DNA of 64,000 bases, taken from the IMG/VR virus record IMGVR_UViG_3300032038_000006; one strand, written 5' to 3'. The notes beneath the pieces are model-generated. The model saw only the letters and a program-made list of their open reading frames with translations. It searched no databases and had not been told where the DNA came from. Positions within the stretch are counted from its first letter, which is position 1. Every line of letters begins with the position of its first letter. Below, in pieces: positions 20,059-64,000 of the stretch. The position numbers and the translations under genes were made by a program. This DNA comes from a virus. Lineage: Duplodnaviria; Heunggongvirae; Uroviricota; Caudoviricetes.

Positions 20059-21246
20059 ATGGCAAAGTTTACATTAGATTTTGACATCCCTACTTCAAAG
20101 GGTCGTCTAAACGCCATTAAAGACATTGATTTAGCTTCTCTTACCAAGACAGAATTAGAAACCATTAGCAACTATGTCCTTTATGGAAAAGATGAAGATG
20201 GAAAGTCTGTGGTAGATAGAAAAGAAGTTTAGATTAAGACTAAATTTTCTTCGTATTAGAAGGACAGATTTGTATCATTAGATGAGATGATGGAGAGTCC
20301 GACTTTTGATGAAGGGATTTTACAGAAGAATAGAACTATTTATAAGAAGATTAAACCTACGATTGATAAGGAGAAGGCTAAGGACGTTCCGGGAATGATT
20401 GAGCTTTGGGCTTCCATTGATAAGATGGCCGCAGATTTAGAGGCTTTAAAGACTAAGAAAGACCAAACTCCAGAAGACCGCAAGCGCATTTACTATATGA
20501 ACCATCATTTGATTGCGCTTAGGAAATAGCAATATTATTTAATGGATAGTGTGTTCCCGACAACTCTTATATAGAAAAATAAGGCAGAATATCATCCTCA
20601 TCCTACTGAGGACCAAATGAACTATCCTATCTTGCCGCGAGGGGTAATGTTATAGGAAGATGATAAAATGTTTATGTACCCAAGGCTTGCTAAAAATCTT
20701 GACACCGCGGCCACAAGGATTTATACAGATAAGGATATTAAGGATATGAGAGATAGGGGGAAGCCTTTCTTTGATTTTAGAAATGCTGACCACCTATACC
20801 AGTTAATTTAGCACTATGCGGAGATTGAGGCTTTCGTAGAGGAGATGCCGGATTCTCCATTACATAATCTTTTATGGACGCTGGATTTTTATATTAAGAA
20901 AGCAAACCTTTCAGAATAGCAAATGTTGATTATTAGGGATAAGAAATTGAGATGCCCGAATAAGGAAATTGCAAAGCACCTAATGGATGAGCTTGGGATT
21001 TACCATTAGGAGAATTACATTAGTACGATTTGGAATAAGTGTTGTTAGCTTATTGCAGATGCGGTTGAACTTAATTATGATGAGTATTTGTGCAGAAATT
21101 ATGATAAAGCTTGGAAAGTATGTTCTCGTTGCAAAATAGAATTGTTGAGAGACCCCAGAAACTTTGTTAAGAAGGCAAAGGCTTCAGATGGTCTGACAGG
21201 AAGATGTAAAAAATGTGACAAAGAACTTAGATAGATGAATAAGTGA
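20059..21246 (+). CDS. Putative regulator: sigma-region-4-like HTH plus C-terminal C4 zinc finger, 395 aa, TAG-recoded
   Basis: GGAGGG RBS; open to TGA apart from TAGs; LSE*QMLIIRDKKLRCPNKEIAKHL (HTH-like) and CSRC...CKKC. Confidence 0.7.
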
Positions 21247-21283
21247 GGTGCCGCCTCGCAGAAATTTAATGGAGGAAGGAGTA

Positions 21284-21670
21284 ATGTTTAAGAAAAAAGA
21301 GAAAGAAGTATCACTGGATAAGTACAGTGTTGGCTTACTCGAAAATTTCAGAGAGCTATAGTATACGGATATTATTGGTATAGGTAATATACTTGGAGTT
21401 AAAGAAGAGGATAACTTTGATGATTATATAACTGCTATTATTGGTGTTTATATGGAAATGCCAAAGAGCAAGCGTAAGGCTATGTTAAAGTTGACTAAAG
21501 ACATCGTTAAGGCTAATAAGGAAATGATGGCTGACCCTAACTTCTACAAGGTGCCGCCAGAGGAATTGGCAAAGCAAGTTGTTGAAGCTACAAAGAACTA
21601 TCACGAGAAGAAGGTCGAAGACTCCAGTTTCTTATCTATGGTGAAGAAGAAGTACCCACCGGGGGTATGA
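21284..21670 (+). CDS. Hypothetical protein, 128 aa (1 in-frame TAG)
   Basis: GGAGG/AAGGAG RBS at ATG21284; track ORF 21452..21670 is in frame. Confidence 0.75.
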
Positions 21671-21775: not shown

Positions 21776-22714
21776 ATGGCACTCAAGAAATGCCAGCGCT
21801 GTGGTGAAGAATTAAGTACCGGCGCTTATATTGCAGTTAACTCAATAGTACACGGAGGAAGTCTCCCGATTTGTCGTCATTGTTTGGCGAAACAAATAGA
21901 TAAAGCTTATAGTGAAGGAAATGGATGGAACGTGGTGGATAAGATATGCCAATGGGCTGACGTACCTTTTGTCCCAGAACATTGGGAGAAAATGTATGAA
22001 GGACATGGCCGCGATGCCATCGGAGTTTACATTTCGACTTTCAGAGGTAAGCCATATGATACACTTGATTGGAAGTAGTACAATGATGTGTATTTATAGA
22101 TAAAAGAGGAAAATCGAGTATTAGATGCTCTACCAGAAGTCCGTGAAGGATTAAGACGTCGCTTAAGACAGAAGTGGGGTCAATAGTATGACGATGAGTC
22201 ATTAGAGTATCTGGAAAACTTACATTAGGGTCTTCTAAGTTCATAGAATATCGTTGGTGCATTGAATGAAGACCAAGCACTTAAGCTATGTAAGATTTCT
22301 CTTATTATTGAGGAAAAGATGCGTAGTGGAATGGAATTTGATAAGGACTTGAAAGCATATGATTAGCTTTCTAAATTAGCAAACTTAACATCAAAGGTAG
22401 TTAAAGATGCGAATGAGTTTAACTCTATTGGTGAGGTTTGTGCGTTCTTGGAGAAGAAAGGCTTTAAGGTTAAGTATTACGATGGAGCAGTTCGTGATGA
22501 AGCAGACTTTACAGCTAAGGATATTAAATACTGGTTACAATCATTATATGTTAATGAGACTGGTATTGCAGAAGAAATTGAACAAAGAATTGAGAACTTA
22601 AAGGTTACTGCTCAAATGACCGGCGGTTAGTTCAACGAGAAAGAGTTTAGAGATTATTTATCAGATGGTCTTACTAAGATTGAAGATGAAGACTTTAAAC
22701 TTGACTTGGAGTGA
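21776..22714 (+). CDS. Zn-finger protein preceding terminase (possible small terminase subunit), 312 aa, TAG-recoded
   Basis: CQRC...CRHC N-terminus; AGGAGGT RBS; TGA overlaps the terL 5' end. Confidence 0.7.
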
Positions 22715-22719
22715 TTGTA

Positions 22720-23346
22720 ATGGTAGAAATAGAAGAGAAGGACAATTATCTGAATATACCATTACCTGGCGCTATACTTAATACTATTCACTATGTTGTT
22801 GGTAAGGCTTCTCAGGAATTTACCAGAGAGGGTATCGTACTTGAAAAGGGCGCGGTTTTGAGTGAGAGACGTATCGAAAACAATCTCACTTTATATCAGT
22901 AGTATATAAGTCTTTGGACCGTATATCCAGACCTTTACTTAAAACTTATTACGCCAACAACTTCTAAGTTTAAATTAAAGTTTTTCCAAATCATATTCCT
23001 TAGAGCTTGTTTACGTTATGGTCGTGTTCTTACCATAGCACCTCGTGCCGCCGGTAAGAGTTTTATATGTATCTTAGCTCTCTACTTAATTTGTATGTTT
23101 AGACCTGGTTCTCACGTATTCCAGTGTGCTCCTGGTAAAGCACAAGGTGCGAAGATTGCAAACCAGAAGATACATTAGCTTTGGGATTTGTTGCCGCTGC
23201 TTAAAGAAGAAATCCTTGGCGATGGTAACTTTGGTAATGACTATGTTAAATTATCATTTAGAAATGGTTCAATTCTTGACGTTATCAGTCCTTTGAACTC
23301 TGCCCGTGGTAACCGTGCAACTGTCGGTATCCTTGACGAGTTCCGT
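22720..23346 (+). CDS. terL: Terminase large subunit, exon 1 (ATPase domain)
   Basis: Walker A APRAAGKS and Walker B VGILDEFR after TAG read-through. Confidence 0.9.
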
Positions 23347-24521
23347 CGAAAATTAAAATCGAGGATGCCGAAAAAGTTGAATTTCGCATTATAAAAATTC
23401 ACCTTATTAATGAGAGGTGATAGAAATGATTGGATACATTTATCAAATCATAAATAATGAAACACAGTAGAGATATATCGGTAAAACGATAGACATTCAA
23501 AGGAGAAAACGAGAACATACTGAGAAGTTAAGGTAGAATAAACACATAAATAAAAAGCTTCAAAATGCTTGGAACGCCTACGGAGAAGATGCTTTTAGTT
23601 TTGTTTATAAAAAGTATGAAATTGATAATGAAGACGAGTTAGATGAATTGGAAATAAATGCTATTAATGAGTATGACTCATACACTAATGGATATAATTT
23701 AACCACTGGTGGAGATGGCGGAAATACGCGAGGAAAGTTATCTTATGAAGATTACTGTATTATTTATTTAGGTTGTCAATGGAAGGGAATGACAGAGAAG
23801 ATAGGAAAAATGTTCAACATTGATTCTTCAACTGTCTCTGCAATTCTTAGAGAAAAAGCCTATATAAATTATAAACAGTTAGCAGATGAACTTTCAGAAG
23901 ATAATAAAAAATATTATCAAGATGTATTTCGTACCATGTTTGCAATAACAAAAGCTCCTGATGAAAATAGAGTACCAACTCATTTAACTTCAGAAGAATA
24001 TTTCTATTGCTTATGCATTGCAACAACTTATAGTCGCGGTGTAGAATAGGCATTAGCAAATTTCTTCGGTAAACATAAATCATTTTTAACTAATGGCATT
24101 AAAGGTAAAACTAAAGGTAAAGCATATGAAGCATTGCAAAAATATTTGCATACTGATTTAGAAGAAGTATGGCAAATAGGCGAATAGAAGTTTAATGAAT
24201 GGCATTTGCAAGAAATGTCAAAAAGTAAATTGAATATTGAGCATCAAGGTCGGTGGCGGAACTAAAATGGGTTAAATTGCGGGAACCTTTCCTTAGAGCC
24301 AATACAGCTACAACGTAGTTTGAAAAGACAAACGTGAAAGCGGTAACGTAGAAGTGAAACCATAAAAATGTATTGGATTGGAGAACCGAGAGTGCAAGTC
24401 TCTCAGACGCAGCGAAATCTCCTCAGCGTAAAGACGGTGGAGAACGTTCAACGACTATAATCCCACTTTGATTGTATAGTCTACTCCCCTAATAAATATC
24501 GGGAAACCGAGGGTATCAAGG
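23347..24521 (+). mobile_element. Group I intron (IA-like core) in terL
   Basis: Exon ends in U (..DEFR), intron ends in G before GAC CAT GAT, restoring DEFR/DHD. Core elements AAATTGCGGGAA (24274), GTTCAACGACTATA (24446), TGTATAGTCT (24473); P7 GACTA/TAGTC. Boundaries +/- a few nt. Confidence 0.88.
23426..24265 (+). CDS. Intron-encoded GIY-YIG homing endonuclease, 279 aa, TAG-recoded
   Basis: GYIYQIINNETQ*RYIGKT...H...LE...YNLTTGG; 4 in-frame TAG; GAGGTG RBS. Confidence 0.9.
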
Positions 24522-25730
24522 GACCATGATGCTAATAACGTTAATGAAATCATCTTACCATTCCTTAACATTGAGCGTCCAATGGTTAACCAAGATAAGA
24601 ATGAAAATGAGCCTCAACAGGTTCAGCTTTGGATTTCATCTGCGTCAGATAAAAACACATTTGCATATGATAAAACTATCGAGTTAATGGAACTTGCAAT
24701 CCTCCAGCCTGAGAAGGTATTCTGCTGGGGATTTGATTATCGTGTTCCAGTTTATACAGGACTATTATCTAAAGACTTCTTGAATGAAATGTAGATGTCC
24801 AGCACTTTCAGTGAGCAAGGTTTTGCGAAAGAGTATATGAGCCGATTTGTAGGAAGCTCTGACGATGCTTGGTTCGACTACGAGAAACTGCTTACTCATA
24901 GACGAATAGTTAATCCCGAGACTCATGAAATTGTTAGAAGTGATATTGAAAGTTTCTACATATTATCAGTGGATGTAGCGAGAAAAGGATGTCAAACTGC
25001 CTGCACTGTTTTAAAAGTGTTCCCAGGCGGCGAGAAATATACTTGCAATATTGTTAATGTATATGTTCTTGGTAAGACTGAAGACGAAAAGGTTTTCGAC
25101 CGTCAGGTTATAGAACTTAAACGTCTTATTAAACGTTTTAACCCAAGAGAAGTTGTACTTGATATTAACGGTATTGGTGTTGGTTTCGCAGACTTTATGA
25201 TAAAAGAATCTTTAGACCCAGTTACCGGTGAAGTCCTGCCAGCTTATGGTTTTATTCCCGACCACGATTTCGGATACGAAGATATACAGCCGAGAAACTG
25301 TCCAAAGATAATATACGGAATTAAGGCAACTGGTTAGATTAACAGCGATATGCATACTGCATTATATGCTAAGGTCTACTCTGGATGTGTTAATTTCTTA
25401 ATCTCTGAACGTAAAGCAAGAGATAAGATTAATGCAACTGCCGTTGGAAGAAAGATGACTCCAGAACAGAAAATCGCTCGTTTAATGCCACACGAAATGA
25501 CATCACAATTAATTGATGAAATTGTTAATCTTAGAACAAAACCTACTGGTATCAATAACCAGATTAAGGTTGAGTTAATAAATTAGCGTATGACCAAGGA
25601 TAAATTCTCCGCACTTGAAATGGGAATTTATCGTATGGTAGAAATCGAGAATGAGGAGATTTCCCACCGTCGTAATAGAGGACTTGGTAGAAAACTCACA
25701 TTCTTTAAGAGTGGAGGTAGAAAACGTTGA
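24522..25730 (+). CDS. terL: Terminase large subunit, exon 2 (nuclease domain)
   Basis: WISSA motif C, LSVDVAR and KDKFSA nuclease motifs; track fragments 24582, 24795 and 25350 are in one frame separated only by TAG. Confidence 0.9.
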
Positions 25731-27274
25731 ACGCACAAGTAAATGCTGTTTATACAGATGCCTTGAAATAGGCGAGAGCTGAACGTCTTGATACCTTCAA
25801 GAAGGCACTTAAAGGTATGATAGCAACGTCTGAGGCGGCATATCAGAAGGCTACTGGTAAGTTCATTAAAACTCGACGTGACAGAATGTATTCTAAGGAT
25901 GATATAAAGCGAATCGTTCAAGAGGGTAATCCAATTGAACGTGCCGCCCTATCAGAATATTTCTTTGCTACCAATGGACTTTATAAGCGTATCATTCTTC
26001 ATTACGCAACATTCTTGACATACTCATGGATACTTGTTCCATATGAGAAATCACGTACTCGTGATAATTCTGAGATAACAGATAAGAAAGTTATTTCAAC
26101 TTATTATGATGCCGCCGATTTCTGCACTAACTTCCAAATAGAAAGAAAGTGTACGTTATTTGCTAAAGATATTTTAGTAAAGGGCGGATATTATGGACTA
26201 CTTCATGATGATGGCGAAAACGTAGTAATTTAGGATTTACCTTTTGATTATTGTCGTAGCCGCTTCAAGAATGCTTAGGACGTAGATATTGTTGAGTTCA
26301 GTATGGCGTTTTTTGATAACATTCGAGATGACGCTTTGCGTGAGGAAATACTTAACACATATCCACGTTATATTAGCAAAGCTTATAAGAAGTATAAGCA
26401 TCACAATGGTGATAAATGGATATTCCTTCCTGCAAAGGATGGCATTTATTTCTGCTATTTTGAGGAACGCCCGTTCTTCTTGGATTTAATTCCTCTTCTT
26501 GATGACTTAGACGATTATAAGGACATTGATAAAGAGCGTAATATGTAGGCTTTGAAACGTATTCTTGTTCAGTAGGTGCCGCTTGATGGTATGAAACTTG
26601 TATTCGAGCCAGATGAAGCAGAAGAGATGCACGAAGGTGTTCTCGATATGATGACTAATAACCCTGACGTTGATGTTTTAACAACATATAACAAAGTTAG
26701 TTTATTAGACATGAGTGCTACTGATGATGAGAAAACAGAAATAACTGACATTTAGGACCTTATATATTCATCTGCCGGCTTGTCAAAGGAATTATTCTTT
26801 GCAACAACTGAGGCAGGACTTAAATACTCTATTAATAATGACCTTGCGATGATAATGATTTTAGGTCAACGTTTTGCACACTTCTTTACAGTTTTGCTTA
26901 ACTATAAGTTTGAGAATAAGAAAGTTAGATTTAGACTTGTCATTCTTCCTTTGAGCTATTACAATAGTGATGATTATACATCACACGCTAAGGAATTGGC
27001 TGCATTTGGTTATCCATTCTTAACGCCAGTTGCTTCAACTGGATTAGACCAGACCAATCTTGTAGCTCTTAAAGCTCTTGAGAATGGACCTCTTAATCTT
27101 GATGAAGTTCTTAAACCTCTTCAGTCTGCTTATACTCAGTCTGGTAAAGCTCAGGGACAGCCGATAAGTGACGGAAAAGAGCCAGCTTCCACACCGTCAG
27201 CTAAAACTGACTCCGGCGGCAAGTAGGAGTAGAAAAAAGAGGATAACAATAAAAAAGAGGAGGGCGATGATTAA
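25727..27274 (+). CDS. Portal protein, 515 aa, TAG-recoded
   Basis: Position after terL; TTG start with GGAGGT RBS overlapping the terL TGA; TAA overlaps next ATG. Confidence 0.8.
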
Positions 27275-28791
27275 TGAGTAACATAAATCATTCTGACTTC
27301 TCAAATCCACCTTGTACTTTAGACGTAACAGTCTACGGTGCGCCAGAAAAATATAACGATGTCTTATCTAAAAGCAGAGTACGAATTTTTTATAAGGGTA
27401 TGAATAGAAATCGTACTTTTATATCAGAGGATTTTGCGAATTAGCTTATAGCATCTTTACCATATACTCCAGTTAAGGGAATCTTTGATAAAGACTCCCT
27501 TGACTTCGAGGACCACGGTGAAGATAATTCTGATGGACGTATCTATGGAATCGTCCCTGAAAATCCAAACTTCGCTTGGGAAGACTTCGAAGATGAAGAT
27601 GGTGTCACTCGTTCATATGCGTCTTGTGACGTTCTTCTATTCACTGGTATTTATGCCGAAGCTCATTTAATTCCTGGAAAGCCCCAGTCAATGGAGATTT
27701 TCAGAAAGAACTTAAAGGGTGAATGGCGTTTGAGCGAAGAAGACGGAAGACCATATTATTACTTTATATCAGGTGGACTCTGTGGTTTATAGACCTTGGG
27801 AGAAGATGTTGAGCCTTGTTTTGAGAGTTCTGCTTTCTACTCCAAACTTACAGAAGAACAGCTTATTGAAGTAATGACTGCTTACGTCAGAAACTTTACT
27901 AAGAAGAAGGAGGAGAGTAAGAAAATGGATAAGTCACTTTTCAGATTATCTGATAATGAAAAGGCAGACATTTTGTTTGACCTTGTAAATCCTAACTTCA
28001 ACGAAGCTGGCAACTGGGAAATCAGTGCTTTTATCGTTGACGTTTATGATGACTATGCTCTTTGCCGCAGCAAGGAAGGCTTTATGAGAGCATACTACAC
28101 TAAGGACGGCGACAATGTAACTCTTGGTGATACTGTATCAGTTAAGATTACTGACGTTACTGAAGCTGAGTTCACAGCTCTTGAAGCTATGAAGGCAGTT
28201 GGTAATGGTTCATTCGAAGCTGCTAATACTGCTTACACTGAGGCTACTGAAAAGGTTGCTTCTCTTGAAACAGCTGCAACTGAGTTCGAGACTGAGAAGA
28301 CTTCTCTTAATGAGAAAATTACAGCTCTTGAAACAGCAGCAAGTGAGTTTGAGTCAACTAAGACTACTCTTGAGGCTTCAATTGCTGAGAAGGATACTGC
28401 TATTGCAGATTTCAACTCAAAGATTGAAACAATGGAGGCTGAAAAAGTTGAATTAAACAATAAAATTAACGACATTACAAATGAGAACACAGCATTGGTC
28501 GAGTTCAAGAAGAATGTTGAAACTGACCAGAAGAACGCTATTCTTGCTAAGTATGAGGAATATCTCAGCGATGACGCTATCACAAACTTTAAGAACTCTA
28601 TGAATGACCTCTCTGTAGACGAGTTCAAGAAGGACGTATGCACAGCAGCTGTTGAGAATGACCCATCAATCTTCTCAAATAGAAAGAACGAGCCAGATAA
28701 GTTCTACAAGGGAGATAATGCAAGTGGCAAGGTCGTAGAGACCGGTGCTCTCGCACTATTAAATAAAAGATTGAATGGAGGTAATAAGTAA
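27274..28791 (+). CDS. Prohead protease-scaffold fusion, 505 aa, TAG-recoded
   Basis: N-terminal protease-like domain (KPQSMEI, GLCGL*TLGEDVEPCF) plus long coiled-coil C-terminus; TAATG overlaps at both ends. Confidence 0.75.
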
Positions 28792-29546
28792 TGGCACTTC
28801 ATGAATTTGATTGTAAAGGTTACGGTCAGATTGAGCCATCACAGGTTTGGTTCAACCGCGCAGGTATGGTTGAAGCACAGTGTGAACTCAATCCTGCACA
28901 GTTTGCTTCTCACTTCCCAGTTCTTCCTACTGAGGCTGCTCAGGGAAAAATTGTTGCTGAGAACGGCGCATTTTTAATGTGCGATAAAGAAAGAAAGCTT
29001 GCTTGCATTCCTTCAAAGAAGTTAGCTGACTTCGGCTATGTTGCTGGTATTAACTACTCAACTGAGAAGAATTATAACCAGTTCACTCCTGGTCGTAGAA
29101 ACTTCTACATGGTTGCTGGCGAATATCTCCCAAGAATCGGTTTCACCGAGCCTGGTATGAGAATTTGCACAAACGCAATTGTTTGGGATGACCAGGCAGA
29201 CTTTATGAAGGCTCCTTATGTTGCTGCAGGTGCAGATATTACAGACTCTAAGGTTATGTATAATGCAGTTAAGGCTTATATCGCTGCAGTAAGAGCAGCA
29301 GCAGAAACTCCTGCTGTAGATGGCGATGATGAGAGACCTGCTCTTGACCCAATTTACGCTGTTCTTTATGATACAGCAGATTATGGTAACCTTGTAAATA
29401 GAGGTAAGCTTGTATTTACTACAAAGGCTAACGCTATTTCAAAGGGTATCGGTGGCATTTACGCAATCGTTACAGAAGCATACAACAACGCTGATACAAC
29501 ACTTAGCTTCAAGCTTAAGTTTGTAAATAAGCCAGCTACAGTTTAA
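28791..29546 (+). CDS. Putative head decoration/minor capsid protein, 251 aa
   Basis: Between scaffold and MCP; high-expression codon usage; no TAG. Confidence 0.65.
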   Translation: MALHEFDCKGYGQIEPSQVWFNRAGMVEAQCELNPAQFASHFPVLPTEAAQGKIVAENGAFLMCDKERKLACIPSKKLADFGYVAGINYSTEKNYNQFTPGRRNFYMVAGEYLPRIGFTEPGMRICTNAIVWDDQADFMKAPYVAAGADITDSKVMYNAVKAYIAAVRAAAETPAVDGDDERPALDPIYAVLYDTADYGNLVNRGKLVFTTKANAISKGIGGIYAIVTEAYNNADTTLSFKLKFVNKPATV

Positions 29547-29564: not shown

Positions 29565-30701
29565 ATGACTGATATCAAAGGAATAAAGGATTTGGTTGTT
29601 CACTCTTTCTATGGAACAAGCCCAGACCCTACTAAGTTTAGTAATAAGGACATTAAGGCTACTCTTAGTGAAGAAATTCACAAGATAGCAAACGACTATA
29701 ATTCATACAGAAGAAATAAGCTCGACCTTTTCGAGATTATGCAGGAAGCATATACTGAGATTCTTCCTAAGCAGGTTGAACAGTTCATCGGTTCTTTCGC
29801 AGAAGTTAAGACTGTTCCACTCAACCAGAAGGCTGTATTCGTAATCAACACTGGCCGTAAACGTGCTAAGCAGTTCATTACAGCAGTTGCTCTTTCTGGT
29901 GTTTATGAGAGCTTCAGACTTGATAAGAACACATTCGAGCTTGGTGGACGTGCAATCGGTGGTGCTGCTTACATTGACTTCGAGAGATATCTTTGTGGCG
30001 ACGAGGACATCGCAGAGTCTACTAATCTTCTTCTTGAAGGCCTCCAGGAAGCTGTTTACGGCGAAATCCAGAGAGCTCTTCTTGCAGCAGTTAATGCTGA
30101 CAATAGACCTGCTAAGAACAAGTACATCGGTGCTGGTTTCGATGCAGACGCAATGGCTTCACTTTGTGCAGTAGCTTCAGCTTACAGCGCAAGCGGTTCT
30201 GTTGTAATTTATGCTACACCTGAGTTCGTTGCTGAAATGGGTCCTGATGCAATCGGTATGCCTGTATATGGTAATGCTCTTCAGGGTACTATGGCTGCTG
30301 GCCAGTACGGCGGATATGCAACTCCTGTTTACAATCCTCGTAACATTGAGGAAATCGCTGCTTACGGCAGAATCCGTACATTCCGTGGTAACCCAATCGT
30401 TGAAATTCCTCAGTCTTATACTGATGAAACTAACGAAGTTACAATCGCTAACCCATCAACAGCTTACATCTTCCCTGTTGGAGATACAAAGCCTGTAAAG
30501 GTTGTATTCGAGGGTAACACTCAGCTTGATGATTGGCAGCACAGAGACCGTAGCTTCGAGATTGAAGTTTACCAGAGAGTCGGTGTTGCAATTCTTACTA
30601 ACTACAACTGGTGTGTATATGTTAACCTTAATCTTGCTGACCCTGAGAAGTATCCTACTAAGTATGCTCTCAACCCAGCAGAACTCACACCTACTATTTG
30701 A
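29565..30701 (+). CDS. Major capsid protein, 378 aa
   Basis: Size, position and strong codon bias; followed by terminator; no TAG. Confidence 0.8.
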   Translation: MTDIKGIKDLVVHSFYGTSPDPTKFSNKDIKATLSEEIHKIANDYNSYRRNKLDLFEIMQEAYTEILPKQVEQFIGSFAEVKTVPLNQKAVFVINTGRKRAKQFITAVALSGVYESFRLDKNTFELGGRAIGGAAYIDFERYLCGDEDIAESTNLLLEGLQEAVYGEIQRALLAAVNADNRPAKNKYIGAGFDADAMASLCAVASAYSASGSVVIYATPEFVAEMGPDAIGMPVYGNALQGTMAAGQYGGYATPVYNPRNIEEIAAYGRIRTFRGNPIVEIPQSYTDETNEVTIANPSTAYIFPVGDTKPVKVVFEGNTQLDDWQHRDRSFEIEVYQRVGVAILTNYNWCVYVNLNLADPEKYPTKYALNPAELTPTI

Positions 30702-30748: not shown

Positions 30749-30781
30749 ACGGTGAGTGAGTTCGGCTCACTCGCCGTTTTT
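30749..30781 (+). terminator. Rho-independent terminator after MCP
   Basis: CGGTGAGTGAG/CTCACTCGCCG plus T-tract. Confidence 0.8.
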
Positions 30782-30803
30782 GAGTTTAAAGGAGGAATTA
30801 ATA

Positions 30804-31322
30804 ATGGAAAGAATGGTAAAAGTAACTAATATGGTAGATTCACAGGTAGGTATTACAGACCTTTCTGTAGGTATCAAACGCCGTTGGCAGAAGAGAGGAC
30901 AGTCATTGCCCATTCCTTTTGAGCAGCTTCAGATATTACTTTATAATGATGGCGTTGCAAATATGTTTAGACAGGGTATGCTTTATATCGACAATATGAA
31001 GGATAAGCAGGACCTCGGTCTTGAGCCTATGGAAGCAACAGAACCTACAAATATCATCGCACTTAGTGAGACTCAGATGAGAGAGCTTTTGAACAATAAG
31101 CCTATTGCAGTTTTCAAAGCTGAAGTAGCTAAGTTACCCGATGCTCAGATAGATAATCTTATTGATTTTGCAATTTCAAATAAAATTGTCAATGTTGATA
31201 AGTGTGCAATCTTAAAGGAAGTTACTGGCCGTGATATTCTCAAGGCTATAAGAACACAGGAAGAAATCGCTGCAGAAGACGCTGCAGAGAAGAAAGCCGC
31301 AGCTGAGGGAAGAAGAATCTAA
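30804..31322 (+). CDS. Virion-module hypothetical protein, 172 aa
   Basis: AAGGAGG RBS at ATG30804. Confidence 0.8.
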   Translation: MERMVKVTNMVDSQVGITDLSVGIKRRWQKRGQSLPIPFEQLQILLYNDGVANMFRQGMLYIDNMKDKQDLGLEPMEATEPTNIIALSETQMRELLNNKPIAVFKAEVAKLPDAQIDNLIDFAISNKIVNVDKCAILKEVTGRDILKAIRTQEEIAAEDAAEKKAAAEGRRI

Positions 31323-51900: not shown

Positions 51901-53530
51901 ACAAGAAGAAGTAGATACATTAAAAGAAAAATATGAAAGCATGAAAGAAGCTGATGATGAATATTACGATGCATTGTCTGAAGCAATTGATAAAGAAAGA
52001 AAACTCCGTGATATGGCTAATGCAGAAGAAGACCTCGCTGAAAAAGAGAAAAAATTATCTTTATTACAACGAGACACTTCTGGAGCAAATGCAAAAGAGA
52101 CTTCATAGTTGCAAGAAGAAATAGAAAAAGATAGACAGGACAATTTAGATAAGCAAGTCGATATGCTACTTGAAGAAATGAAAAAAGCAGCAGAAGATAG
52201 AGCTAAAGAAAGAGAAGCATTAACTGAAAATACAGAGGCTATAATTGAATCAACAGAATGGACTAAATTAATGAAAGAACAAATGAGTTCTTGGACCAGT
52301 GAAGACGACGCTGTAGCTTGGCTTTACGCTAATAAAAAGATAGATGATATTACTGATGAAGAGATTGAGCAAATAACTAATGAATGGAAAGAAAAATATG
52401 CTGATGGTTTATCTTATTTAGCATAGTTTAATGAAAATTATACTGGATATATATAGGCAACAGATTAGGAGATATAGGCAGCTTCTTAGAATATTCAAAA
52501 TGATTTAATTAATGCAAGTAATAATACAACCCAAAAAGTTAAAGAAGATATAGAAGAAGCTCAACTTTCTGCTGATAATGCGCTTGCTGATGCAAAAGAT
52601 GCTTATGCTGAATTAACCAGAAATATTGCTGATTATAAAGAATCTTTATTAGATGCTAATACTGCATGGGATAATTACTATAAAACTCATAAAGAAGGAG
52701 CATAGAAATATGCAACAGATTTAGCAGACTGGTATGAAAAAGAATTGGCAAGAATCGCTAAAGAAAAAGCAGATACTCTTTATTCAGAGACAGAAGACTT
52801 AGGAAAACATTATACAGAATCTTATAATAAAGCTCCAACTGGTATGGAAAAAAGTGCTATTACTTATGCAGCCGAAGAAAAAGGATATGTATGGAGCGAA
52901 GATAAGAATGGATTCATATATAATCCAACAAGAGCCTCTTAGATTGAAGCTTCAAGAAGATATGTTGCACCAAAGACAAAGACAGAAGAGCTTTAGGAAT
53001 TATGGAATTAGCTTGATACATAGTCAGACCCTTCTCAAGATATGGGAGTGCCTGTTTATCAGATTGCTTGGAACGCTCAATACAGATATACAAAAGATGA
53101 AAGCGTTGCAAAAATGTGGAAAGAAAATGGAGCATCAGTACAGTATGACCCAAATCCAATGGCTTAGGGAACTGGCAGCGGCTATGGATATAATTGGTAG
53201 AAATATGCAACTGGTGGACTTGTTCCATATACAGGTATAGCTCAGGTAGATGGTACCCCATCTCGACCAGAAGCCTTCTTATCCGCAGAAGATACAGAAC
53301 GTTTCTTGACTGCGGCACAATTATTTGCAATGTCACCACTTCTTAATTCTGCATCCGCTCAAAATGCCGTTTCTTCATCTATTGGAGATACTTCTATAGA
53401 AATCAACATTAATGTGGAAAGTATTTCAGATGATTATGATGTTGACCGCTTAGTAAAGCGTGTTGAGGAAGATATTGCTGAGGCTGCACAGCCTACAGGA
53501 ACAGCAGTCATTTTAAACAAAAGAGTCTAA
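45923..53530 (+). CDS. Tail tape-measure protein, ~2535 aa, heavily TAG-recoded
   Basis: Seven track fragments (47204, 47609, 49148, 50588, 52109, 52745, 53306) are in frame with ATG45923; TMP-type segment MIETTQEAPENIGTAMKTIIARF...LSSKWDTLDRNSQRYIATIAAGSRQ; long helical composition. Not every codon was checked. Confidence 0.88.
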
Positions 53531-53585: not shown

Positions 53586-56123
53586 ATGGCAAAAATGAGA
53601 GATTTTGAGGGATTCCGTTTTGGAAATATTCATTCCTCAGACTTGGATTTAGTTGTAGTTAGTTCAAGTAATCGCTATGACAAAAATCTTCTCCCTCCTC
53701 CTAAAGATTATACCTTAGATGTACCAGGAGGGGATGGAAAATATTACTTTGGTTAGACATTTGAGACAAGAAGCTTTACAGTTAATGTTGCTTTTGATAA
53801 TGTAAGTGAGCCTACCTTCCGAAAGATAGCTCAATTGTTTGCTTGTGATAAATTATAGGATTTAGTATTTGATGAGCTTCCTTATAAGACTTATAGAGCA
53901 AAGATTAAGTCGAATCCAGACTTTAAGCACATTTGTTTTACAAATAGAGAAACTGGAGAAAGAGTTTACAAAGGAGAGGGCACTCTTTAGTTTATTTGCT
54001 ATTTCCCTTATGCCTTTGGTTTTAATAAATATGTTGTTAGGGCGGCAGACTACTATAAATGTATGATGCCAGAAGATATTATTACTAATAGTATCGAAGA
54101 AAATCCATATAAACGTCGCGGCCCTAAGAAGATGTTGCCTGGTCTTATCAAAGACCACTATAATGTTCGTCCTAATATGAACACTCCTTGGAAGGGTGGT
54201 TATCCAACCATAGAGCAGACTCAATGGGGAGAACTTTACTTTACTCCTCCTCCATCAACAGATAGACCGGTTATTCCACAAGATTGTTCTGACGCGCCAA
54301 ATAATGATAATAAACTTCTTATTGATGTTCGTGGATACTGGAAGAACATACCTGAATGGCAAGGAACTGCTAAACTTTTAACTACACCGACATTAGATTA
54401 TGACCAAGAGTTAATTTACTTGCCTTAGTATAGTAAGAAAGATTATTACAATATGGACATTGGTTCAGCTCATAACACAAATCTCATGGGAAGTAGAATA
54501 CTGGTTTATAACCCAGGAGACGTACCAGTTGAATTTGAACTTCGTATTGGCAATCTTATAAAGCAGTTTAGAGGTCGTGACCCTTATACATTTAGAATTT
54601 CTCGTCATAATGTATAGAGATTATTAATTGAAGATGCTGTTGATTGGACTGGATTAACAACATTTAGAGACGAAGATAATATACCTTATAAATATGGTAA
54701 TAGATATTTTACTATTACAGAAGGTGTTGATGATACAAAATTAGTTACTTCAACAGAAGTTGACGGATAGACTATTAATTTCTATGAGCCAGCATATCGT
54801 AATCTTAAAATGGCTCATCCTAATCATACTTATTTAATTGAACCTATTCCAAGAGAAAAGCTTGGACATTTTATTAGACTTTTTTATTGGTAGAGTTTGC
54901 AATTAAATAAAGACGACCCATATGTAAAACAGGTTATTGATTTTGAATAGGGTAAGGCTATGGCGGCGCGATATGAAGAGCTTTATAAAGGCTGTATCAC
55001 TGATGAAGAGAGATATGAGCTTTATTGGAAGACTCTTAAGGATGCTATTTTAAGTCGTTATTTAGCATTAGATGAAGCTCTTCAAGAAGCAAGAGCTCCA
55101 CTTCCAAGAATATTCAATGATGACTATACATATGAAGATTTCGTCTATGATTATATCTATAGTCCAGCAGAATATATACGTGTGAAAACTAATGATAATG
55201 CTAAATATGGTTAGTTTGACCTTAATATCAATAATTATCCTCAATATATTACAGGAGATTATTTTGATATAAATACAAAAGACTTTGATTAGTTTATACA
55301 AAACAAAGATGTCAAGCATTAGACTATTGAACCTCTATTCCTTGACACTGACCGTAGAATGTTGTATAATATAATTGAACCAAAATGGGAGAAAGACAAC
55401 GAAGAGCTTTATGATAACTTCTATGATTATAAACCTCATAAGAATATTCTTAATGAGAATATTGAAAAGGGTCATTGGTTTAAACTCCCTCCTGGATGGT
55501 CTTTGATTAATATAACTCCAGTAGTTGACGAAGATGTCTGGGGCGGCAAGAGATGGCTTGATGCCAGACCATTTGATTGGGGCTGGAGTGAAAACGCTAA
55601 TTATGAAGAAGTTCAAAAGAAGCGTTAGATATATAATACAATTTATACTGAATTAGTAAAACGCCATATTGAGAAATATTGTCCTGAGTATATAACAACA
55701 AATACTGATGAAGCATTTGTTAGAGATGACGAAGGACACGAGGGAGAACTTGTCTATGATAATGGACAATTTACCACAGATGAAATGGAATAGATAGAGC
55801 ATATCTTCCAATTACGCCGTTGGTACGAAGATTATCGTAGAGAAATGTTAGTTCTTGCAGATTTCAGTAAGGCCGCGGCCTCATTTGGAGACGATATTTA
55901 TAAGAAGCGTACAGAAGTAACTGAGGTTAAGTTCTTGCGTACTCTTGATGAATATTGGAGAAATAATTTCGGTACAAATCCAAATGAATATTTCCACGGA
56001 GAATTAAGTGAATGGTGGTGGTATGCTAATAACTATATCTGGGCAAACTTCCCTCCTATTTACTGGGGATACATTGATTTGCTCAATGATATATAGATTA
56101 AATATATCCCGCTATTTTATTAA
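53586..56123 (+). CDS. Distal tail protein (Dit)-like, enlarged, 845 aa, TAG-recoded
   Basis: GFRFGNIHSSDLGL...VPGGDGKYYFG...LVFDELPYKTY N-terminus; follows TMP. Confidence 0.75.
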
Positions 56124-56135
56124 GAGGTGATAAAG

Positions 56136-59100
56136 GTGAGTATTCATAAATATGAATATGAATTGAGTGTCTGGTCTGAGACACTTGCGGAAAATGGAAA
56201 TAAAGTCGAGCGTAAAGAATATATAATTGGCGCCCATGATATGTCTTATCTTGGGCGCGCCACTGGAATTAAGTTGGCGAGAAATATTAAGGGTACAAAT
56301 ACTTTAACATTCCAAATGCCAACAAAATTTTTCGACTCAGAAAAAGGTGAGTTCGTAAAAAATGAATATATAGAGGAGCTTTTTAATGAGAGAAAAGTTA
56401 AATTAAAATTTCAAAAATAGTGGTATGAGTTCTATATAAAGAGGATTTCAGAAAGCAAATAGTTTAAAGCTATTATGAAAACTTTTACTTGTGAGGACAG
56501 TTTTATTGATGAATTGTCTCGTACTGGATATGGAATTACTTTTGATACTGAATTACATAATAATGTTGATGAACTTGGTAATTTCAGTGAAATTATTATT
56601 GAAGACAGTATTTGGGACTACTGTCCAGACTTCAACTGGGGTGATTTTACTGAGTTTACTGAGTAGCGTTTTTATAAAATACCATTAGATTAGTTTGGTG
56701 GAAGTATAAGCGCATATCCGATAATTTTAACTGTAACTAAGGACGATTTATTATATGCAAATAACACTCCTAAGCCATACTTAGAAAAACGTTTGGCTGA
56801 TGAAGGTTTAGTTTGGGTTAATATGACTGCTGAAGAAAAAGAAAAATTTGTTAATAACGAGATTACTTTAACAAATATTTATACTCACGAAAAGAGACCT
56901 CTTGAATATGGAGACGATATGAGTAGAGTTGAAGAGATTTTCTGGGACCCATACAAGAGCGATAATGGTTCTTCTCTTTGGAGTGCGGCAGAAACATTAA
57001 GCGGAGGATATATTTATGTCCCTATATCTGATTTATCATATATTTACGGTTCAGCTATTAATGACCCATATAAAGCAACAGAGACTCCCGCTTATTATGG
57101 AACTGATGATAAGAAAGGATATGCTTTACAACCTTATTCTAATAACCCAAAAGATTTAATTCAATTCATTTATTTCCCTGAAAATGCTGACATAGAAATA
57201 GATGAGAGTGGAACGGTTGTAAATAATGATTACCATTATATTATGACTATAGATGCTTTTAGTAAATCAGCTGGACATAATACAATCCATTGGAGAGATG
57301 CTGATGACACTTATAGAGCAATCACTCCAGACACAAGTCTTATTGATAACTTCAATTGGAATCCAGTATATTATGAAGGATATTTAGATAAAATTGGAGA
57401 AACTGAAGTATTCAAGGCAAGAAAAATTTCTGTTACTGATAGAACAGAATATAACTTAGACAAAGAAAGTTATGTAACTGTTTATAATAATAGTTCAGAA
57501 GAATATAAAAATCTTTATTCAGAAAAAGAATTAGAAACCTTAGTTAAAAAAGGTTAGGATTTTAGAGTATGTTCTAATTTATAGACAAGACTTGTAATGC
57601 CTACTTTGGCTCGTAATCTTGTTTAGAACGGAACTAATATTTCTAAGACAGATGGCTGGGATTCTTTAACTTAGAAAAGTGAGACTTCTACCAATACAGG
57701 TCGTTTTGAAACCCTACTTGAATTTGATGTAAAAACAGCAGAGCAAAATATCACAGGATAGGAAGAAGACCAGGGTATTTCTGATTATTATTTAGAGATT
57801 CTTAGTCCAAAAGTCTTAAAAGGAAATAGCTTTGATTTAGAAGGAGAGAGCTATTCTGATTACTTATTAAACTTTGGTTTAATTGGTTAGGAAAAAATCA
57901 TTGAGAAAGATAAGATTTATGCTTTACGTATGTGTACAGGAATAAATTATCCATATAAAGGCGTAATTACTTGTCGAGGCCTTAATGGAACAGAGGTATA
58001 TACTATAGCAGAAACAGTAATTGTAGGAGACGTTACTGAAGAAAAAATTCGTGCGGCATATCAAGAAAATATTGATGGTGTTAAAAATATAATGGACGAA
58101 CATTACAAAGCCTATGTTGATACTGTTAAAAGCTATGGAGCTCAATTAATGGATGAGTCAGTTTTTGGTACTGTAGATTATAGCTCTGCATCAGAGCAGG
58201 ATTTTAAGGATTTGCTTAATACTATTATAACAACTCATGACCAAGGACTAACTAAGACTGAATAGTTGTATGCGGCAGTCGCCAACTCTCTTGACTATGG
58301 ATACCTAATAGCTTTATGGAGAAAAAAAGAAAACCCTAATAATCTTTCTGAGTCTGCTAATCCAATAACTGATACAATTGTATCACAAAAAGAGTCTATT
58401 GTCTTAGGTGTTGGAGACAAAGGAGATTATAACCTTTTAAATCAAACAACTATTAATTCATGGATTAAAGATATACTTAAAAATACAACTTATTTCATCA
58501 AGATGTATAATACTGATTTAGATAAAATTTTGATTGGATAGGGTTCAATTGATTTAAATGGTAACTATACATTAGATGGAAATAATAATCTAAGCGGAGA
58601 TTACATTTCTTTTTCTGATTTGTTTGATTCTGAAAATGAAATTGCATTTATAAATGAATTTTATGGAGAAGATGCTTTGACTAATGAAGATGTCCAAAAT
58701 AAAATTAGTAAAACTTATTATCATAATAAAGAAAATGGTAAATGGGAATGGGGCACTTCTGCTCAAGAGACTAATGTGCCAGATACATCATTCTTATTAT
58801 TCAAAGCCACAAAAACAATCGAAAATCCTTATATCGGTATTAAGGTTTCTTCTTCTCCATTATCTATAAACATAAAAGAATTAAAGGTTAAAAAATATGA
58901 TGACACAAGCTATAAGGGAGTAAAATTACAACTCTTTGCAAAAAGAGACGGACAGCCTTATTTAGTTGATGGTTTAAGTTTTATATGCTATAAATTAACT
59001 GAAAAGAATTTTGAAAAATCATTCTTAGAATCTCTTGGAACATTAGATGATGCAGGTAATTTAACTTTAAGAACAGACATCCAAAATGTAGCTTATTAGG

Positions 59101-59297
59101 ATTCATATTTAAAAGCAAATGCTTATATGGCTTGGAGCGGCAAGAGCTTAAGTGATAATAATTTGTATTTCACTAAAACCACATTAATGATTGAAAATAC
59201 CGCCGTAAATGAGAATAAATCCGACGCATTTGCATTATTTATTAGTGATGGTACTAATAAAACATTTTATGGCGCATTTCAATTAGTTAAGGGGTGA
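56136..59297 (+). CDS. Tail/baseplate protein (Tal-like N-terminal part with insertions), 1053 aa, TAG-recoded
   Basis: LARNIKGTNTLTFQMP...FYIKRISE...FTCED N-terminus; five track fragments in frame. Confidence 0.7.
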
Positions 59298-59301
59298 TTA
59301 A

Positions 59302-62300
59302 ATGTTAAAAAATCTTCATAAGGTAACTAATAGTTTAATTGAAGACACTCTTTCAGCCTGGGGTCCTTATAAAGGAGAGTGCGTACTATATAATAAAAGA
59401 GCTGGCGTATATCCATCAACTGGTAATGTAACTTCTTATCAATTTGCCTTTATGATTGTATCAAGAAACGGTTCAGAAGTTGGTAATGCGGCAAATTGTT
59501 TCTCTAATGAAAGTAATTACGGCTTCTTGCAAAAGAATGCTGGAGCTCCCACAGGCTATGCTTTATCAAGTAGATATGGAAGTGAAATAAGAGGTATTAC
59601 CCTAAGAAATGGAAATAAATTCGGCGGAGTATAGACAGTACCTGGAGCTTCAAATTATGGGAAGCAGGCAATAGCTTCAGAAATTGGAGCTGCAATTCCT
59701 CCAATGGCTTGGAACTCTACTGTAACTACTTACAATAATAAACATACTGTTTATTGCTATCTTAATGGAGTAAATGGCAATAATGGAATTTATTACTTGG
59801 ATAGCGTTATGGATTTACTTGACCCAAGTGAAAAGAGAGGAACATGGACTGGATTCTTTTACAAGGCAGGATATTACAAGAATGGTTATTTAGTTAATGA
59901 TGGTAGCTATATTATTATTTCTTGTAATAGTTCCAAGACAGACTTTGGTACTTCAAAAGGACCTTTTAAAAATCTTTCTGATGGTGCCGCGGTGCTTAGT
60001 GGTAACTCAGATTATTCATCTTACTCTGAAAAGAGATTTATCTTGTTATAGCTAACTGGTAATTCATATCCCTGCTACAAAACATTATGTGGTACTTTTG
60101 ATAACCCTGTTGATTATAATACTATCCGCAATTACTGCGGGGCAACTTCAGGCAGTTCGGGAACTGGAGGCAGCGCTGCAGCTTCAGTAATTGATTAGTT
60201 AACAGAAGAAAGTTATTTTGATGTTAATAACACTTTAAATAATGCTACTGGTGGAAAGGCTCAATCTTATATTAAAAATTTCCAAGATTATAAAATGGTA
60301 TTTATTGGAAATAGTGCATTAGCTTCTGAAATTAATGTGGATAAAAATAATCTTATAGTTTCAATAACTAAGGATACAATTCCTGCAGCTTCTGGCGGAC
60401 AGATTTCAGATAAATATATTAGTTTATATTACAATGCCAATAAAGATGAGAATTACACTGAAGCAAATTAGGATGGATTTTTCGGTTAGATAGACTCTTT
60501 TATAAATCCAGACCCTAATAATAGTTTATTAAATAAAAAGATTCCTGACTATAATCTTCCTTCAGAAAGAGAACATCTTAAAACCACTGTTATTGGAGTA
60601 GATAAACAAACCTTTAATGACTTTATGTCTTCGCCTTATTGGAATAAAGGGGAGTTTTCTCTTTCAGTGTTCTTCAACCATATTCCTTCATCTGCAAATA
60701 TTTATAGCTTAACTTAGTTTATGAATAAGACAGATAGAACAAAAAAACTCTTAATGTTCTTTGATGTAGGAAATAATTTAATATATAAACCTCAGGAAGA
60801 TATAGAAACTTTTATGAGTGACAATAGTAGTTATTTTACTAATATAAAGAAAACAAATTTTGAAATTTCATTAGAGTATAATTAGGAATCTGAGGCTCTT
60901 AACTTATATTCTTTGGAGTTATTTGAAGGATATACTCGTGGTAGAGATTTCATTTAGGAAGATTATACCACAGTAAGAGCAGAAGAATATTTAAAGTCCT
61001 CTATCAATGGAGGAACAAATAATAAAAGAAAGATGTCTATGGATGACAATTATTTCTTATACAAATATAGCGGAAGAGATTTTCAGTTAAATCCATATAA
61101 TGAAAGCGGTTCTAAGAATAATAAAGTTCTTCAATTAAGCGGGGGGTAGGATATATATTGCGTACTTGTTCACTCATCAGATTTATTACTTGAAAGTGAT
61201 GTTACTTTGGGTGAAGCTTATGGTATTTAGAATTACTTTATTCAAGCCATTCGTTATGATGCTAATTATAATATTGACAATGAAATTGCCGCGGAGAATA
61301 TGTATCATATCACTCCAGATTATCATTATGTTGATACATTTAAAGTAACTAACTATCTTGAAGCAATTTTAGATGACCCTACTGCTGGAGCAACAAAATA
61401 TACTGAAGACGACTTAGAGATTAAAACTGGTAATATTGATTTAACTCAATGTAAATATTTTAATCCATTAGAGGCATCTGCAGAAAATCATTGGTGTGAT
61501 TGTAGCTACGGCGGCAATGGATTTTAGTCTGAATGTTTATATGTCAAAATCGGTAAGTGTCCTTACAGATTTAAAACGGAAAAGCACCCAAGACGTATAA
61601 GAACACTATCAAAAGAGAAAAGTAATAGATTTAATTTAATACAAGAGTTAAGCAAAGTATTTGAAGTTTATCCTAATTTCTATATTGAGTTTAATGAGAA
61701 CGGAAAAGTTAAAACTGATGAAGATGGAAAGATGTTAAAACATATTTGCTTTATGACTGAAAAAGGAAACTTGTAGAAAATTGGATTTAGATATGAGAGA
61801 AATCTTTCTAATATTTCAAGAACGGTAGACTCTTCTTCTATTACTACAAAACTCTACGTTGAAAATATAGATTCTCAGCTTACTCCAACTGGCGTATGCT
61901 CAATTGAAACAGCCGAGGATTCTATCAGTAGAACAAATTACGTCATTGGATTCGATTATTACATAAAGAAAGGTATATTAAATGCTGAACAAGTTCAAAG
62001 AGACTTATATGGTATTTCTAAAAATGATATGGCATTTTTACCTACTATCGGATATTTCAATAAACGTTATGATGAACTTTCTAATTTAATCATTAATATG
62101 ACTGGAGAAAAGCTTACTGAACTTGCGGCAACTTTAAAAGTAAGTGTTACTGGTGTAGGTACAGCTCTTGAGGAAAGACAAAAAGTCGCTCAACAGATGT
62201 ATCAATTTAAGACAAAAGCTCAAAACAGAAATACTGATTATACTACTTCTGATACTTATAAAAACTATCTTGAAAAGTATAAGGCATAGGCAACTATTTT

Positions 62301-64000
62301 ATGGGGAGAAATAGAAAAACTATTCTTTACTGGTTCTAATGTAACCCTTATAAATAGAAAGAGAAATGAGACAACTGATGAATATGAATATGATTTTTAG
62401 CTATTTACAATACCAGAGACACAAACTATCGGTACTATATATCCAGACGGGAAATTTGAATAGATGAAATATCTCGCCAATGCTTTCTGCGAAAAATATT
62501 GTAAGGGAGAGCTCTTCTATCGTCTTATGATTCACGGATTTGAGGATGAAGACCTCGGAGATATAATTTATACTCCAGTATTTAATAGCTGGGAAGATTT
62601 CAAGAATAGTCTGCTTGAAGATTATCAGTATCCTGTTAATGGAAATGAAGGTCAATATAAAGGCTTATATGATTAGGTAAAGAGATGGAAAACAGAAAGA
62701 GCTACTTGGCTTAATAAAATAAACGCTATTGCAGATAAATTCTATAAAAAATACGAGCCATTTATTAAAGAAGGTACTTGGACAGATAGTAATTATCTTA
62801 CAGATAATGAATACTACTGGGCGGCGCAATCTGTACTTGAAGACGGAAGCAAACCTAAGATTACTTATAATATCTCAGTGGTTGATATAGCTCCATTACC
62901 TTGGTATACAGATGATTATACAGTTGGTCTTGGAGATACAACATTTATTGAAGATATTGACTTCTTCGGAATAAACAAAGTAACTGGACTTCCAAATAGA
63001 GAAAAGGTTATTATCAAGGGAATTACATTCTCATTAGATTAGCCTCAATAGAACTCTATTAGTATATCAACTTATTCTACTGCCTTTGAAGATTTGTTCG
63101 GTAGTATTAATGCCAGCGTTCAATCATTAACATTTAATGAGAACACATATAAGAGAGCAAGTAACTTTACTGCAACAAAATATGTAGAAAAAGAAGCTCT
63201 TTAGGGAACTCTTGATGAGGGCGACCTTATACTTATGAACGCAAATAATAATAATATTGAAATAAGCGAAGACGGCACAAAGGGTAGAAGTATTGATAAC
63301 AAATCAAATTGCTATGACTTAAGAGGAGAAGGTCTATTCTTCTCATAGGACGGCGGAGTAACATGGGATATTGGTGTTGGACCTTCTGGTATAAATGCTG
63401 ATTATATTAAATTTGGTTAGTTAGATGCTTCTAAAATTTAGATTGTCGATGGTTCATATATTTATTTCCTTTGGGATAAAAGTGGTATTAATGCTTACAG
63501 AAATCCAGCAACAAGTACTTCTGGTTTAGTTGATTTTGCGAGATTTAATAAATATGGTTTAAGTTTAATTGAAAATAATAATGTACGTTTAAGAGCTGGT
63601 TATGCTTATTCTAATAATAACAATAACGGTGATTATAGAGAAGAAAATGAATTGACTAATCAGCATATTGGTTTCTACCTTTATAATGATAAAGGTCAGC
63701 CTATATTTAAGACTGAAACTCGTTCTGACTATGATGATGTTAATTCTGATTACAGTGCTCGTTTAAGTCTTGCTGGTGAAATCTTTGCAACTAACAAAGT
63801 TCTTGCCGGAGAAAATGACGGTTCTATTATTTCTTCAAAAATTGTTTATAAGTATTATACAAGTTATGCAATAAGAACAGTTTCATTCGGACGCTTAGGT
63901 CCTTTATCTCAATCAATTATTTCTAATTTAATTGGACAAGATTGGTACATAGAAGATAGAGGAACAGAAGTTGTTGTTTATGTCAATATAGAACAATTCC
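59302..64000 (+). CDS. Large tail protein (Tal-like C-terminal part), >1566 aa, runs off the window, TAG-recoded
   Basis: NRFNLIQELSKVFE, GFRYERNLSNISRTVDS, FIKEGTWTDSNY, PKITYNISVVD motifs; the frame was open except for TAG wherever checked, including the last lines. Confidence 0.75.

Follow-up and report, generated by a model that had tools for sequence, protein, structure and literature searches.

We report here that the late genes of a tailed phage recovered as IMG/VR virus record IMGVR_UViG_3300032038_000006 appear to be written in genetic code 15, in which the amber codon TAG specifies glutamine (Gln, Q). The window, by which we mean the whole 64,000 nt stretch of DNA that was analysed, carries on its plus strand a late block (positions 20059-64000) of head and tail genes, and we put at roughly 0.93 the probability that this block uses code 15, with TAG read as Gln by two suppressor tRNAs encoded by the phage itself. 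That TAG functions in the late block as a sense codon with the meaning of Gln is, from comparison of sequences, a well-founded prediction. An exact-protein look-up places the window at 77,944-141,943 of ENA contig ERZ27256903:k141_101128 (180,954 bp), 116 kb of which was covered in this study, namely the window and the leftward part at ~25-90 kb. By its sequence relationships this is a tailed phage of ~181 kb related to the SPbeta, Enterococcus EF1 and phAss-1 group.

TAG alone interrupts the late genes

The coding capacity of the late block was measured as its coverage by stop-to-stop open reading frames (ORFs) of at least 100 amino acids (aa) on the plus strand under alternative stop-codon read-throughs. 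With the standard code (table 11) about 64 such ORFs cover 56% of the block, whereas reading through TAG (table 15) yields 26 head-to-tail ORFs, all on the plus strand and mostly abutting or overlapping, that cover 99.1%; the longest of these are 2536, 1566 and 1058 aa. Read-through of TGA gives 62% and that of TAA 91%, the latter figure being unspecific because the unrelated left arm also reaches 91% under TAA read-through, with 150 short ORFs on both strands. In frame 0 of the 26 late ORFs there are 199 TAG, 14 TAA and 11 TGA codons, and every TAA and TGA is a terminal stop; the two remaining frames contain 259 and 200 TAG, 411 and 871 TAA, and 190 and 942 TGA codons. Neither chance nor decay can produce a frame-0 pattern confined to TAG in this way.

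The claim made from the letters of the window, that the late genes are broken by TAG and by nothing else, is thus borne out, and the re-call of genes with table 15 against table 11 that was proposed as a check does raise the coding density. The four junctions at which restored genes were said to overlap the next start (TTGA at 25727, TAATG at 27272, and ATGA at 32078 and 41493) are all as described. Conserved genes interrupted by TAG only, and restored when TAG is read through, are what is expected of a code-15 phage. The extent of the recoding differs somewhat from the original prediction, which had it run across the whole operon: read-through is indeed block-wide, but it is not uniform, since four late genes are free of TAG, and recoding is not confined to positions 20059-64000, being seen also in an HNH gene at 4124-4639 and in an ORF at 162-968.

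The residue aligned with TAG is glutamine

To identify the residue encoded by TAG, the TAG sites were set to X in the window translations and aligned to standard-code relatives, which covered 153 of the 199 sites, and the likelihood of each amino acid was calculated from substitution profiles drawn from the same alignments. The head and neck genes, with 68 TAG sites, were compared with 16 standard-code relatives, the two closest of which were also scored apart, and the tail genes, with 85 further sites, with three (G007, G009 and G011). At the 68 head and neck sites the columns of the two closest relatives are 58% Q, 11% E and 8% K, and those at CAA and CAG codons of the window are 62% Q, 7% K and 7% E. 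The log-likelihoods for these two relatives are -185 for Q, -337 for K, -341 for H and -346 for E, a gap of 152 to the runner-up; with all 16 relatives they are -1171 for Q, -1675 for K and -1811 for E (a gap of 504), and for the tail genes -478 for Q and -559 for E (a gap of 81). Nine TAG columns, each covered by at least six relatives, contain Q without exception, including positions 287 and 317 of the putative sigma factor, position 157 of ORF 21776, and portal positions 169 and 184, with four more. The alignment of TAG with Gln in standard-code homologues that marks a code-15 genome is therefore present, Q being the top residue over 153 sites.

Comparison with recoded relatives gives a similar picture, with TAG and CAA or CAG exchanged in both directions. 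In-frame stops of those with 88-89% capsid identity are matched in the window by Q in 71 cases, TAG in 40, K in 11 and E in eight; of 137 window TAGs compared with relatives at 96% capsid identity, 114 are conserved as TAG and 17 correspond to Q. Nearly all of the stops inside the alignments of recoded relatives (2043 of 2092, 97.7%) are TAG.

The original prediction had favoured Gln, which the residue profile and the likelihoods over the 153 sites uphold, and the tabulation of aligned residues that it proposed gave a consistent Q rather than no consistent residue. It had added that glutamate would also fit at some sites, citing TL*ADGDPT against TLEAEGDPT and the motif DNL*WCT. The first of these comparisons exists, between paralogues at 38740 and 41038 on one side and at 36787 and 42738 on the other, and TAG sites with E in relatives can be found elsewhere, as at position 545 of o37114 and position 705 of o38932, but such columns are few and reflect the usual exchange between Q and E; over all sites the likelihood rejects Glu. 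DNL*WCT does not lie within 20059-64000 but in the minus-strand HNH gene at 4124-4639.

Two suppressor tRNAs are encoded upstream of the window

The only tRNA genes inside the window are those for tRNA-Lys and tRNA-Asn, and no tRNA(CTA) is found there. The search for a tRNA(CTA) in the rest of the genome that had been suggested was successful, however, with two tandem tRNA(CTA) genes located on the same contig 47 kb upstream of the window (L078 5493-5568 and 5572-5648; ~30,958-31,113 of the record). A phage-encoded tRNA with a CUA anticodon, as is typical of code-15 phages, is thus present in duplicate. Each of the two scores 53 bits with the Rfam tRNA model RF00005, and they are only 64% identical to one another. 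Both have a U1:A72 pair and the discriminator base A73, a combination that among 48 tRNAs is shared only by both tRNA-Gln genes, the two suppressors and one tRNA-Met; all five tRNA-Glu and all five tRNA-Lys genes have G:C or C:G at the 1:72 pair. The bacterial amidotransferase GatCAB distinguishes tRNA-Gln from tRNA-Glu by U1:A72, and the acceptor end of the predicted suppressors fits charging with Gln.

Genes for tRNA(CTA) are also present in the recoded relatives G002, G003, G004 and L077, the last being a 97%-identical sister contig of the window's own contig, and none was found in the complete standard-code relative G007, even at a relaxed ARAGORN threshold; the relaxed run, which was applied to G007 and G005, also gave obvious false positives and was used for the CTA anticodon only. 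The original prediction had also suggested a search for glutaminyl-tRNA synthetase (GlnRS) or release factor 2 (RF2), and this yielded neither: four complete relatives and a partial one lack release factor (PF00472) and Glu/Gln-tRNA synthetase (PF00749) domains, and the genes called at 25-90 kb of the phage's own contig gave no Pfam matches to release factors, GlnRS or glutamyl-tRNA synthetase. No hepatitis delta virus-like or theta ribozymes of the kind described in PMC10879173 were detected with Rfam in the neighbourhood of the suppressors.

At least 48 tRNA genes are present in the 116 kb covered. A phage tmRNA with the tag peptide ADYAIAA* is encoded ~16 kb to the left of the window (L072 1940-2283), and within the tRNA cluster, on the downstream side of the two suppressors, a sub-threshold match to YrlA (Y RNA-like; L078 9472-9528) adjoins a gene for a DUF2828/VWA protein (10658-12121). 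In the TAG-recoded relative G002, with 88% capsid identity, ARAGORN calls a candidate tRNA with the anticodon TTA, which would read TAA (L063 6198-6271, minus strand).

The genetic code varies among close relatives

A megablast comparison with GenBank phages gave no nucleotide match, and the nearest annotated phages are phAss-1 (34.5% capsid identity), which NCBI places in a 'Caudoviricetes code 15 clade', those of the Enterococcus EF1 type, and SPbeta-like Staphylococcus phages. Sixty-one related loci with 46-96% capsid identity were found in IMG/VR, the complete genomes among them being 150-186 kb long. The same TAG-only fragmentation is seen in 45 of these loci and the other 16 are intact under table 11, including L006 and L007 at 84% capsid identity; the genetic code therefore varies inside the clade. 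Code variation among close relatives has been reported for other recoded lineages in the preprint of Borges et al. (bioRxiv 10.1101/2021.08.26.457843). The most TAG-fragmented of the relatives, G005 (L011, L069), has a table-11 ORF coverage of 35% and ~9 tRNAs.

Early genes and recoding outside the late block

To the left of the late block, at 1185-19991, is a region of 41 small early ORFs (4101 codons) that contain no internal TAG as compared with 92 CAA and CAG codons, and that stop at TAA (28), TGA (nine) or TAG (four). Lacking internal TAG, these ORFs are read alike under either code, so that the genome displays the partitioned use of code-15 phages, with early genes readable under the standard code. 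The four that apparently end in TAG, ~10% of the early genes, are all on the minus strand (1185-1529, 2701-2889, 8290-8640 and 14448-14600), and the code switch would lengthen them by 0, 36, 35 and 3 residues respectively. The notion that a back-up stop following TAG is a design rule of early genes was considered and rejected, a second stop within three codons being present in only two of the four.

Two recoded genes lie outside the late block. A minus-strand gene for an HNH/NUMOD4 homing endonuclease (4124-4639; phrog_59, E 1e-44) has four TAG codons, contains DNLqWCT, and is embedded in the otherwise TAG-free early block; a recoded intron endonuclease within an early gene is described in the preprint of Borges et al. 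(bioRxiv 10.1101/2021.08.26.457843). The second, an ORF of 268 aa with seven TAG codons and without an assigned function (162-968, plus strand), is at the end of an upstream plus-strand block and gave no family match in PHROGs or Pfam searches.

Alternative explanations

Several observations weigh against the assignment of code 15 with phage-encoded suppressors. In the more distant relatives K is found at 19% of TAG sites as compared with 7% at canonical Q sites, an excess that may reflect the one-step mutation AAG to TAG. The suppressor tRNAs are situated outside the window, and the strongly recoded G005 has no detectable tRNA(CTA), even at the relaxed ARAGORN threshold. The early ORF set came from ORF calling, so that for the four TAG-ended ORFs a count of zero internal TAG follows from the way in which they were called. 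We infer the Gln identity for this phage from evolution and from the likeness of the acceptor stems, and the timing model considered below would apply here on the strength of a published one.

The least improbable of the rival readings is that TAG is sense but specifies Glu or Lys, or is ambiguous through two dissimilar suppressors that are charged differently. E. coli amber suppressors are often charged with Gln or Lys, the two tRNA(CUA)s are only 64% alike, K is enriched in distant relatives, and single columns can be found that are E in 14 of 14 relatives (o32799 position 133) or K in 10 of 10 (o24468 position 109). It is nevertheless improbable given the likelihoods (for the closest relatives, -185 for Q against -337 for K and -346 for E; for the tail genes, -478 for Q against -559 for E), the nine columns that are Q in every one of at least six relatives, and the U1:A72 and A73 that both suppressors share with tRNA-Gln and with none of the Glu or Lys tRNAs. 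We regard it as more improbable still that decoding depends on the host, which would itself have TAG as a sense codon or provide a suppressor, with the phage merely matching it. Some recoded phages do infect recoded hosts, such as the code-25 phages noted in bioRxiv 10.1101/2021.08.26.457843, and G005 is recoded with no tRNA(CTA) detected; the phage studied here bears two tRNA(CUA)s of its own, however, its 41 early ORFs avoid sense TAG and about four of them end in it, which would be pointless in a TAG-sense host, and relatives at 84% capsid identity use the standard code. Moreover, phages of recoded hosts use the recoded codon in ~90% of genes rather than in one partition, according to the same preprint.

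That the TAGs are real stops, in a phage that is decayed, pseudogenised or mis-assembled, or whose proteins are made as fragments, accounts for the fragmentation under table 11 but is effectively refuted by the interruption of genes 199 times by one of the three stop codons without frameshifts, by the conservation as TAG of 114 of 137 sites in relatives with 96% capsid identity, and by the recurrence of the pattern in 45 independent contigs and the presence of a cognate tRNA. There is as little to be said for pyrrolysine (Pyl), which is suggested by the ARAGORN label 'Pyl', although this program names any tRNA with a CTA anticodon tRNA-Pyl. A true tRNA-Pyl lacks the D-loop GG and the GGTTCGA T-loop elements, and the two suppressors are ordinary cloverleaves with both, at 53 bits on RF00005; the residues aligned with TAG are Q and not K. 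The two tRNAs thus do not have the atypical tRNA-Pyl architecture, no search having been aimed at pylS or pylBCD.

Glutamine codon choice and the TAG-free late genes

With TAG read as Gln, it is the commonest Gln codon of the late block (199 TAG, 177 CAG and 158 CAA; 37%). Its use is uneven, and the Gln codons of the four TAG-free late genes, beginning at 28791, 29565 (the capsid gene), 30756 and 34087, are 50 CAG with no CAA and no TAG. The first three of these together account for 30 CAG and the 979-aa gene at 34087 for 20, with a probability of 9e-5 that the latter would have no TAG by chance. The same contrast extends to the clade: in up to 45 recoded relatives the share of TAG is 2% for the capsid gene and the adjoining upstream gene, as compared with 41-46% for the ATPase part of TerL, the sigma factor and ORF 21776. 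The three TAG-free genes besides that for the capsid probably encode abundant virion proteins.

Genes of the late block

Gene identities were assigned from PHROGs and Pfam profile searches, the latter giving, for 20 late proteins, only matches to Sipho_tail and a weak one to YOMG_N. Among the gene names originally proposed, TerL, portal, tape measure protein (TMP) and Dit are supported by profiles, but 'protease', 'neck' and 'Tal' matched none. The motifs said to be restored by read-through are likewise found in the block in the case of Walker A (AAGKS), Walker B (ILDE) and GIY-YIG, but the HNH gene is located outside it.

The first recoded late gene encodes a putative sigma factor of 395 aa (20059-21246; phrog_5767, E 5.7e-19; no Pfam match), in which ten TAG codons make up 62% of the Gln codons. 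It is followed by two ORFs without an assigned function, at 21248-21670 (one TAG) and 21776-22714 (phrog_3314; seven TAG), and by terL, which is divided by an insertion of ~1.17 kb at 23347-24519 that bears a recoded ORF for a GIY-YIG homing endonuclease (23417-24265; phrog_7168, E 1e-25; four TAG). The N-terminal ATPase part of TerL (22711-23394; phrog_15503, phrog_9 and phrog_38) contains Walker A and B and two TAG codons, and the C-terminal nuclease part (24468-25730) has four, its real exon beginning near residue 18. In relatives L031 and L055 terL is unbroken, and in others it is interrupted elsewhere, at residue 180 in L036 and L058, at two sites in L037, and at residue 236 of the C-terminal part in L025. 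No Rfam model for a group I intron matched the terL insertion.

The portal protein (25727-27274; 515 aa; phrog_2739, E 2.6e-60) has eight TAG codons, five of which are at columns that are mostly Q in relatives (169, 184, 274, 283 and 343). Next is a head-associated protein without an assigned function (27274-28791; 505 aa; phrog_3313) with two TAGs, that at position 173 being Q in 14 of 14 relatives. Three genes found to be TAG-free by codon count follow at 28791-29546, 29565-30701 and 30756-31322, the second of which is major-capsid-like as judged by its position and by phrog_4088 only. Five small ORFs of the head-completion or neck region (31340-34074) hold 17 TAGs, distributed as two at 31340, none at 31722, eight at 32078, two at 32799 and five at 33316.

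Five tandem paralogues at 34087-43950 have in common the phrog_2729 'virion structural' domain; the first (34087-37026; 979 aa) is TAG-free and the remaining four (37114-43950), which bear the TLqADGDPT and TLEAEGDPT sites, have two, ten, four and seven TAGs. Beyond these are an ORF of 635 aa without an assigned function (43995-45902; 14 TAG), the TMP (45923-53530; 2535 aa; phrog_4211, E 1.4e-43) with 58 TAGs, and the distal tail protein Dit (53586-56123; 845 aa; Pfam Sipho_tail, E 4e-12; phrog_202) with 14. The block closes with two large tail-tip or fibre-like proteins (56127-63999; weak YOMG_N match; phrog_6211, minor tail protein), one of 1056 aa with 13 TAGs and the other of more than 1566 aa with 22, which is open at the window end. 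All genes in this account of the late block are on the plus strand.

Discussion

E. coli supE is a Gln-type tRNA with a CUA anticodon that competes with release factor 1 (RF1) and inserts Gln at UAG, and the predicted suppressors described here would be alike in setting such a tRNA against RF1; they differ from it in being phage-encoded and in serving a genome that, having 199 sense TAGs within 44 kb, would have evolved a dependence on them and not just a tolerance of sporadic read-through. Recoding of TAG to Gln in phages with suppressor tRNAs has been known since 2014-2022 and no new principle is involved here. The same recoding pattern is described in PMC10607447 and in bioRxiv 10.1101/2021.08.26.457843, and PMC9523058 provides proof from peptides that crAss-like phages use code 15. 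In common with the code-15 gut and rumen phages of Borges et al. (crAss-like, Lak and the 'gemstone' clades), the phage has its in-frame TAG codons mainly in structural and late genes, early genes that the standard code can read, a tRNA-Sup(CUA) of its own, homing-endonuclease genes that are recoded, and a code that differs between close relatives. It belongs to a different lineage, however, being an SPbeta/EF1-like siphophage of ~181 kb, and the 'code-change module' of Lak, Agate and Jade (RF2 or an aminoacyl-tRNA synthetase) was not seen in its relatives.

There is also a likeness to phAss-1, the proposed Phassvirus and its wider group (Babkin et al. 2023; PMC10607447) in several respects, these too having a large siphovirus-type genome, a very long TMP, many tRNAs, two to three tRNA-Sup(CTA) genes with no dedicated synthetase, TAG in the TerL, portal, TMP and tail fibre genes, and standard-code cousins such as Enterococcus phage EF1. 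Membership of Phassvirus calls for ~80% or more nucleotide identity and synteny with phAss-1, BK046881 and BK025033. With 34.5% capsid-protein identity and no megablast match, the phage is not of the same genus as phAss-1; it differs also in genome length, 181 kb as compared with 136 kb, and in coming from a sample other than human gut.

A plausible course of infection can be outlined by taking the timing from the model of Borges et al., as set out in bioRxiv 10.1101/2021.08.26.457843, and by adding to it our own suggestion that suppression is incomplete; we infer both. The early genes would be translated by the standard machinery of the host, while the levels of the phage tRNA(CUA)s rise; once host enzymes have charged these tRNAs and they outcompete host RF1, the TAG-rich late and homing-endonuclease genes could be translated in full. 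Recoding would then time virion assembly at the level of translation, or act as a safety catch on it, guarding against premature late expression. Suppression in competition with RF1 is probably incomplete, and proteins required in the greatest numbers would be purged of TAG; abundant proteins may avoid TAG for this reason. The clade-conserved avoidance of TAG in the capsid gene and the three other TAG-free genes leads to the prediction that suppression is only partial. A more tentative idea, and one that we think rather less likely than its negation, is that TAG has two meanings in one genome, as a stop in early genes and as an inefficient Gln codon in late ones, with a density tuned gene by gene as a dosage dial. 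If this were true, both the timing of virion components and their stoichiometry would be governed by the efficiency of suppression, and the late sigma factor would be a tRNA-dependent feed-forward switch.

There is also a practical consequence, in that table 11 breaks the TMP gene into 59 pieces, and this phage and its 45 recoded IMG/VR relatives therefore need gene calls with table 15. More generally, a clade in which standard-code and recoded members are found at 84% capsid identity offers a good natural series in which to follow the onset and spread of a codon reassignment.

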